From NCBI RefSeq assembly GCF_013122565.1, contig NZ_CP053258.1: DNA of 64,000 nucleotides, one strand, 5' to 3'. Below the pieces are notes generated by a model. It was not told where the DNA came from, did no database searches, and saw nothing but the letters and a program-made list of their open reading frames with translations. The stretch comes from Escherichia coli (GTDB taxonomy: Bacteria; Pseudomonadota; Gammaproteobacteria; Enterobacterales; Enterobacteriaceae). Of the stretch, positions 12,707-12,806 are shown one piece after another (within the stretch, counting starts at the first letter, position 1; each line of letters opens with the position of its first letter). A program made the position numbers and the translations under genes.

Positions 12707-12806
12707 GCCTGATGCGCTGCGCTTATCAGGCCTACAAGGTGAATTGCAATTTATTGAATTTGCACATTTTTGTAGGCCGGATAAGGCGTTTACGCCGCAT
12801 CCGGCA
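12707..12806. repeat. BIME: two inverted REP (repetitive extragenic palindrome) units
   Basis: gcctgatgcgctgcgcttatcaggcctaca (12707..12736) and tgtaggccggataaggcgtttacgccgcatccggca (12771..12806) are canonical E. coli REP sequences. Confidence 0.8.

Follow-up and report, generated by a model that had tools for sequence, protein, structure and literature searches.

The two repeat elements that follow fliC (site 1, 12707-12806) and torZ (site 2, 61821-61919) in a 64-kb stretch of Escherichia coli DNA, hereafter called the window, are, as judged by their sequence, single-copy BIME-1 elements and ordinary members of a described E. coli repeat family. We read them as independent copies of that family, each with a linker that carries a putative IHF site and with REPs that would fold into RNA hairpins, the first copy lying inside the small RNA FliX and the second between two convergent genes. 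Taken as a whole, we give this explanation a probability of about 90%. Both copies are catalogued and already known, REP/BIME sequences being the best-known dispersed repeats of E. coli.

Both sites have a common layout, in which a Z1 REP is followed by an AT-rich linker of 35-36 nt and by an inverted Y REP (Table 1). The initial annotation had reported two sequences with the same inverted arrangement at these positions, one downstream of fliC and one downstream of torZ, and had identified them as BIMEs. Sequence and alignment bear out the arrangement and the gene context, and the identity as inverted REP pairs stands as well, all BIME-1 sequence features being present. At both sites the Z1 unit reads GCCTGATGCGCTnnGCTTATCAGGCCTAC, 29 nt with a short loop, and the Y unit reads GTAGGCCGGATAAGGCGTTyACGCCGCATCCGGCA. 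The linker of site 1 additionally contains the palindromic arms TGCAA/TTGCA.

Table 1. Coordinates of the BIME-1 elements and of adjoining features in the window.
Feature	Position	Strand	Basis or remark
Site 1 Z1-type REP, GCCTGATGCGCTGCGCTTATCAGGCCTAC	12707-12735	+	Exact Z1 pattern match; REP tail match
Site 1 L linker, 36 nt, AT-rich	12736-12771		Agrees with family linker consensus
Site 1 IHF-type core, ATTCAATAAATTG	12747-12759	-	One mismatch to WATCAANNNNTTR
Site 1 inverted Y-type REP, + strand GTAGGCCGGATAAGGCGTTTACGCCGCATCCGGCA	12772-12806	-	REP tail on minus strand
FliX sRNA (processed fliC 3'UTR), whole site 1 BIME inside	12667-12861	+	98% identity to MG1655 fliX b4827
Intrinsic terminator fliC/FliX, CCCCGCCACCGGCGGGG then TTTTTT	12838-12860	+	Terminator scan
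GC-rich hairpin, AGCGCCCGGAAACGGGCGCT	61779-61798		Sequence; 10 nt past torZ stop
Segment of ~136 nt: BIME with ~21 and 15 nt of flank	61799-61934		In the window and MG1655; AAATTTT in O25b:H4
Site 2 Z1-type REP	61821-61849	+	Z1 pattern and REP tail matches
Site 2 L linker, 35 nt	61850-61884		Between Z1 and Y REPs
Site 2 IHF-type core, ATTCAATATATTG	61860-61872	-	One mismatch to WATCAANNNNTTR
Site 2 inverted Y-type REP	61885-61919	-	REP tail match

When the window was scanned for REPs, the Z1 pattern gave two matches only, those of sites 1 and 2 (0.00 expected from 100 shuffles), and the REP tail TTATCMGGCCTAC, with up to one mismatch, gave four, one for each REP of both pairs (0.05 expected). 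These two patterns were used instead of a generic REP pattern of fixed spacing, which is unsuited to Z1 and Y and yielded no match. The 64 kb hold four REP units only, all in the two sites, and each site is a single extragenic element at the 3' end of a transcription unit, with no more REP tails nearby. Folded alone, the Z1 REPs form hairpins of -13.2 kcal/mol at both sites (z -3.1 at site 1 and -3.8 at site 2) and the Y REPs hairpins of -20.9 kcal/mol (z -4.1 and -5.0, respectively). At the RNA level, each REP, or the two REPs paired mutually, would form a stable hairpin in any read-through transcript.

BIME-1 elements, also called RIB or RIP, are defined by a z1 and a y motif, a single copy, and a long conserved L linker that often contains an IHF site (PMC3333891; PMC2817692). 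By this published definition the combination of Z1, inverted Y, long linker and one copy per site makes both elements BIME-1. Z1, inverted Y, L linker, IHF-type core, single copy and extragenic position were all found at both sites. We also sought evidence against the class, either arms that are not Y and Z1 or a linker unrelated to the L motif, and found none. At the sequence level there is no difference between the two sites and BIME-1, or RIB/RIP, elements, which are reportedly described by Gilson (1991), Boccard and Prentki (1993) and Bachellier (1999) and are reviewed by Ton-Hoang 2012 (PMC3333891).

The family to which they belong is large. A pattern scan of species-representative genomes recovered at least 120 loci, in which at least 127 elements share these REP tails; hosts among the matches listed are E. 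coli, E. albertii, E. whittamii, Pseudocitrobacter, Kosakonia cowanii, Pluralibacter, Citrobacter youngae and Superficieibacter. Similar places within one E. coli genome numbered, by megablast, at least 27-39 (median). A perfect enterobacterial BIME-1 also turned up on a 262-nt contig of the assembly of a Firmicute, Desulfosporosinus sp. OT, and is most likely a contamination of that assembly. Linkers of 35 nt are the commonest (77 of the 127 listed elements), and a linker core, TGCAATaTATTGAATTtGCA, is 80-90% conserved in the family alignment of the copies listed. Both window linkers align to the family consensus, this core included.

The two linkers moreover carry ATTCAATAWATTG on the minus strand and in the same register, one mismatch away from the IHF core WATCAANNNNTTR. 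Matches with one mismatch are common in the window (74 versus 60 expected) and do not discriminate, so the case for IHF comes from conservation of the core in the family: a core with at most one mismatch was present in 90 of the 127 listed linkers (71%), in 89 of them on the same strand, as compared with 6% of shuffled linkers. IHF binding to BIME-1 linkers is documented for the class (PMC3333891; PMC2817692), and no site-specific IHF ChIP data for REP/RIP sites were found in a search of the literature. We thus infer an IHF site at both loci, and at the DNA level the linker would supply this predicted site.

The window is in reverse orientation relative to MG1655. In it, site 1 comes after the flagellin gene fliC (ORF 11320-12663, plus strand, a 447-aa allele) and before fliA; it starts 44 nt past the fliC stop and lies upstream of the fliC terminator. 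Being placed between stop and terminator, the element is inside the annotated sRNA FliX (ncRNA b4827 in the MG1655 RefSeq), an overlap that the initial annotation had missed. In K-12, FliX is a sigma-28-dependent, Hfq-binding sRNA of ~200 nt that is processed from the fliC mRNA, and a shorter form of ~100 nt, FliX-S, contains one REP downstream of fliC (PMC10578931). When FliX is overexpressed, flagellin, fliC mRNA and the expression of ribosomal-protein reporters all fall, and overexpressed FliX-S, in which the Y REP hairpin is kept, is more active than full-length FliX (PMC10578931). As part of the sRNA, the site 1 element would be co-transcribed with fliC and form the structured middle of FliX, FliX itself being a transcript of which the BIME is only this portion.

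The primers used for cloning and mutagenesis in Melamed 2023, eLife (PMC10578931), allowed us to place the FliX 5' ends and the M1 mutation in the window. The +1 of FliX falls at 12667 and that of FliX-S at 12756, within the BIME linker. M1 (GCA to CGT), which marks the seed, falls at 12827-12829, between the Y REP and the terminator and just 3' of the former. The seed, GTCAGCAACG, is identical to that of MG1655, and the terminator is identical or nearly so. In the predicted fold of full-length FliX, Z1 pairs with Y to give a single long hairpin capped by the linker (-70.9 kcal/mol, z -3.9); when the BIME is folded by itself this inter-REP hairpin has a z of -4.8, and position 12756 occupies a 10-nt apical loop, UUUAUUGAAU. 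FliX-S folds into the Y REP hairpin, an open seed region and the terminator, in that order (z -5.1), such that it would start with the Y REP hairpin and continue with seed and terminator. From these models we infer that the AU-rich linker loop may be the FliX cleavage site and that the Y REP may protect the new 5' end. The location of the published FliX-S 5' end, in what is predicted to be the apical loop of a BIME-1 linker, is mildly new: the REP receives only a passing mention in the FliX paper, which is silent on the position of this end in a BIME-1 linker (PMC10578931). The element as such corresponds to REP141 (MG1655 2001969-2002067, tandem, fliC/fliX) in the supplement of a 2026 preprint (Harris 2026), a supplement in which REP139 was not found; the MG1655 RefSeq feature tables consulted list no REP features.

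Site 2 is located between the stop codons of the convergent genes torZ (59322-61769, plus strand) and cmoB (61934-62905, minus strand). The BIME begins 22 nt beyond the GC-rich hairpin that follows torZ, and the cmoB stop is 15 nt past the BIME. In MG1655 the torZ-cmoB BIME is at about 1954428-1954527. A scan around site 2 called neither promoter-like nor terminator-like sites; the T tracts are degraded, which accounts for the lack of a terminator call in the window allele. The element would lie in the 3'UTR of the torZ or the cmoB transcript, beside a hairpin shared by both. In the literature, REPs are context-dependent terminators or decay blocks in 3'UTRs, and both genes of a convergent pair tend to be more highly expressed where REPs lie between them; a section heading of a 2026 preprint states that, in general, terminal REPs do not go with longer mRNA half-lives. 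The role of mRNA 3' stabiliser that the initial annotation had also suggested depends on context according to current literature. Judging from these genome-wide trends, site 2 could serve to terminate transcription or to block decay in both directions, and we take a two-way 3'UTR role at torZ/cmoB to be a plausible one.

Both loci are polymorphic among strains. Among 5426 complete E. coli genomes, 3501 have the full region of site 1 and 3884 that of site 2. For site 1, seed and terminator together were found in 3508 complete E. coli genomes by blastn with a 71-nt query (megablast, which needs a 28-nt exact word, undercounts), showing that seed and BIME co-occur; the counts (3508 versus 3501) leave no FliX-without-BIME allele class of appreciable size. 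About 35% of complete E. coli genomes are without the FliX body and seed and have a fliC 3'UTR of ~18 nt before the terminator, and the terminator alone is kept in ~1400. E. coli HS and strain 6883 are examples: in both, ~18 nt lead from the fliC stop to the same terminator and, relative to window 12664-12837, 5' flank, BIME and seed are missing as one block. K-12 and O157:H7, in contrast, have the long 3'UTR. Strains of E. coli without the FliX body thus keep the fliC/FliX terminator. In the type strain of E. albertii, NBRC 107761 (L013, 1034-1180), the same BIME and seed follow fliC without the terminator hairpin. The absence of FliX body and BIME from about one third of complete E. coli genomes is likewise mildly new, and the conservation passages of PMC10578931 do not discuss a strain-level lack of the FliX body.

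At site 2, the hairpin of E. coli O25b:H4 (L004, 220-260) has A and T tracts on its two sides and lies directly against the cmoB stop, and this BIME-less allele has the appearance of a textbook two-way intrinsic terminator. The A and T tracts are clean in the BIME-less O25b:H4 allele and degraded on both sides in the BIME-carrying allele of the window and K-12 (61770-61800).

In Pseudomonas, REP doublets called REPINs form hairpins and are linked to RAYT transposases. Two inverted REPs and a spacer are likewise one repeated unit there, an analogy drawn in PMC2817692; REPINs differ from our sites in sequence and host, and there is no RAYT gene in this window. RAYT/TnpA-REP binds, cleaves and recombines BIMEs in vitro (PMC3333891; PMC2817692). 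The strain indels are not BIME-sized: at site 1 the 170-nt FliX body is concerned, and at site 2 ~136 nt, including ~36 nt of flank, are replaced by 7 nt. A clean presence or absence with the element's own boundaries, as looked for in a RAYT-mobilised doublet, was found at neither site. Since both indels take in non-repeat flank, a RAYT-type insertion is not demonstrated.

We tentatively propose that the BIME-1 of the fliC 3'UTR is a working part of FliX, in which the linker loop would be processed to yield FliX-S and the Y REP would protect the product, the whole module of BIME and seed being strain-polymorphic and present in about 65% of complete E. coli genomes; this is possible rather than probable. 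The alternative, in which the elements do nothing locally and are selfish or neutral passengers, the activity of FliX resting on seed and terminator, we also find rather doubtful. The seed does lie outside the BIME, yet the two co-occur almost perfectly in the genome counts given above. Both sites are dispensable in one third of E. coli genomes, but the arrangement is kept in E. albertii and the linker core is conserved across genera. Finally, REP effects are highly context-dependent in the literature, whereas at this locus the form that retains the Y REP hairpin, FliX-S, outperforms full-length FliX when overexpressed (PMC10578931).

The initial annotation had further proposed that the elements are gyrase- or IHF-binding BIMEs. 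The IHF half fits the BIME-1 class; the gyrase half does not fit it, as strong gyrase binding and cleavage are a property of BIME-2 (PMC3333891; PMC2817692), a class defined by Z2 together with Y REPs, by short S linkers and by tandem arrays (PMC3333891). It is very improbable that both sites are gyrase sites of the BIME-2 type, acting mainly as topological insulators or gyrase cleavage sites. REP/BIME sequences as a class bind gyrase and can stop supercoil diffusion (PMC3333891; PMC2817692), but the partner of Y is here a Z1, the linker is of the long L type and there is one copy per site, and Z2 REPs, short S linkers and tandem repetition are absent from both sites. With BIME-2 and with REP325/naRNA4 the sites have the Y REP in common; the Z2 REP, short linker and tandem repeats of those elements have no counterpart at either site. 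Consistently, the Y REP of site 1 scored 42.7 bits against the first hairpin of the Rfam naRNA4 model, below its gathering score of 59.5. The earlier reading is thus partly supported, and its list of functions should be narrowed to IHF and 3'UTR roles.

At site 2, a match to the Rfam model RF02751 (ES036/CssrF) at 61842-61884 on the minus strand reached 45.5 bits against a gathering score of 37.6, and the site 1 linker gave a borderline match, also on the minus strand, of 37.6 bits, equal to the gathering score. These matches, together with a northern-blot signal for CssrF from a different locus of Shigella flexneri, dacB/yhbZ, could be taken to mean that site 2 encodes an independent minus-strand sRNA to which the REPs are incidental. 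We think there is little chance of this. The 43-nt model is in effect a BIME-1 L linker plus REP tail and simply fits the linkers of both sites; ES036 matches at two loci of E. coli E69 (L117 and L122) likewise coincide with BIME-1 linkers, so that the Rfam match marks the repeat and shows no locus-specific gene. Also, the surroundings of site 2 are devoid of called promoter-like or terminator-like sites, and the Shigella transcript, of ~290 nt, is from dacB/yhbZ and probably contains a copy of the repeat, given the model.

How closely the two copies are related was assessed by alignment. Their mean column identity was 89% over 116 columns with short flanks included (pairwise alignment) and 85% over the 101-nt element (family alignment), and identity fell to background level right outside 12706-12806 and 61820-61919, that is, at the element edges. 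A repeat search of the window recovered the same pair as two families, D4 (62 nt, 90%) and D10 (41 nt, 85%), with a spacing of ~49.1 kb. Chance similarity was considered and rejected, with pattern matches expected about zero times in shuffles. The description 'near-identical' in the initial annotation is apt for the REP arms, which differ at only 2 and 1 loop positions, and overstated for the linkers, which differ at ~10 of 35 positions.

Among 108 other BIME-1 copies in the matches listed, pairs had a mean identity of 84% and a median of 85%, the same as the 85% of the window pair, and 46% of such pairs were at least as similar as the latter. Indeed, 55 of the 108 listed copies are closer to copy 1 than copy 2 is, and 72 are closer to copy 2 than copy 1 is. 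That the fliC and torZ copies are specifically related, whether by recent copying, by gene conversion or by duplication of a segment, can practically be dismissed, for although the two elements share their plus-strand orientation, architecture and 85-89% identity, their flanks show no relationship from the element edges outward, so many family pairs, often from different species, are as alike, over half of the listed copies are nearer to each window copy than the two are mutually, and the linkers have diverged. On these comparisons there is no special relationship between sites 1 and 2, and their likeness is that of common family membership.

The two copies had also been considered potential recombination substrates, which is at best marginal: the longest exact run common to them is 23 nt, and the 49-kb interval between them contains argS, pgsA and three tRNA genes. 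Both argS and pgsA are essential. A deletion between the sites would therefore remove both genes and be lethal, and only a duplication is conceivable.

Other features were noted in the window. A 2.4-kb insertion (47615-50059) that MG1655 is without lies between cheZ and flhB and contains two minus-strand ORFs. One of them (48409-49917, 502 aa) has Pfam HD and HD_assoc domains and a PADLOC dGTPase match (E 5e-71), and the other (47688-48440, 250 aa) gave no family match; the insertion looks like a small dGTPase-type anti-phage defence islet in the flagellar/chemotaxis region. In MG1655, the cheZ-flhB spacer (1966323-1966385; L126, ~12024-12086) holds REP140, made of two degenerate REPs, which the islet replaces in the window. 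Its left junction (47605-47615) is just inside the first REP, with GCCTGA followed by new sequence, so that a REP site coincides with the boundary of the inserted islet. Unlike MG1655, the window strain has no IS1H upstream of flhDC (~35491-35498). Rfam matches at gathering score were MicL sRNA, C0465 RNA and three tRNAs, at 57599-57906 (+), 41177-41254 (-) and 22654-22952 (+), the tRNAs being the glyW-cysT-leuZ cluster by synteny with MG1655. Direct repeats at 42133-42642 and 43834-44343 (74-77% identity, spacing 1701 nt) correspond to the paralogous chemoreceptor genes tar and tap, again by MG1655 synteny.

For annotation, the outcome is a cleaner one, in which both sites are BIME-1 elements of the IHF type and not BIME-2 elements of the gyrase type. 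The two side results, the position of the FliX-S 5' end and the absence of the FliX body from many strains, may interest researchers on sRNAs or flagella. If the BIME-1 of the fliC 3'UTR is a working part of FliX, FliX would provide a documented example of an sRNA that has recruited a REP doublet, and the post-transcriptional feedback on flagellin and ribosomal protein mRNAs would vary by E. coli lineage.
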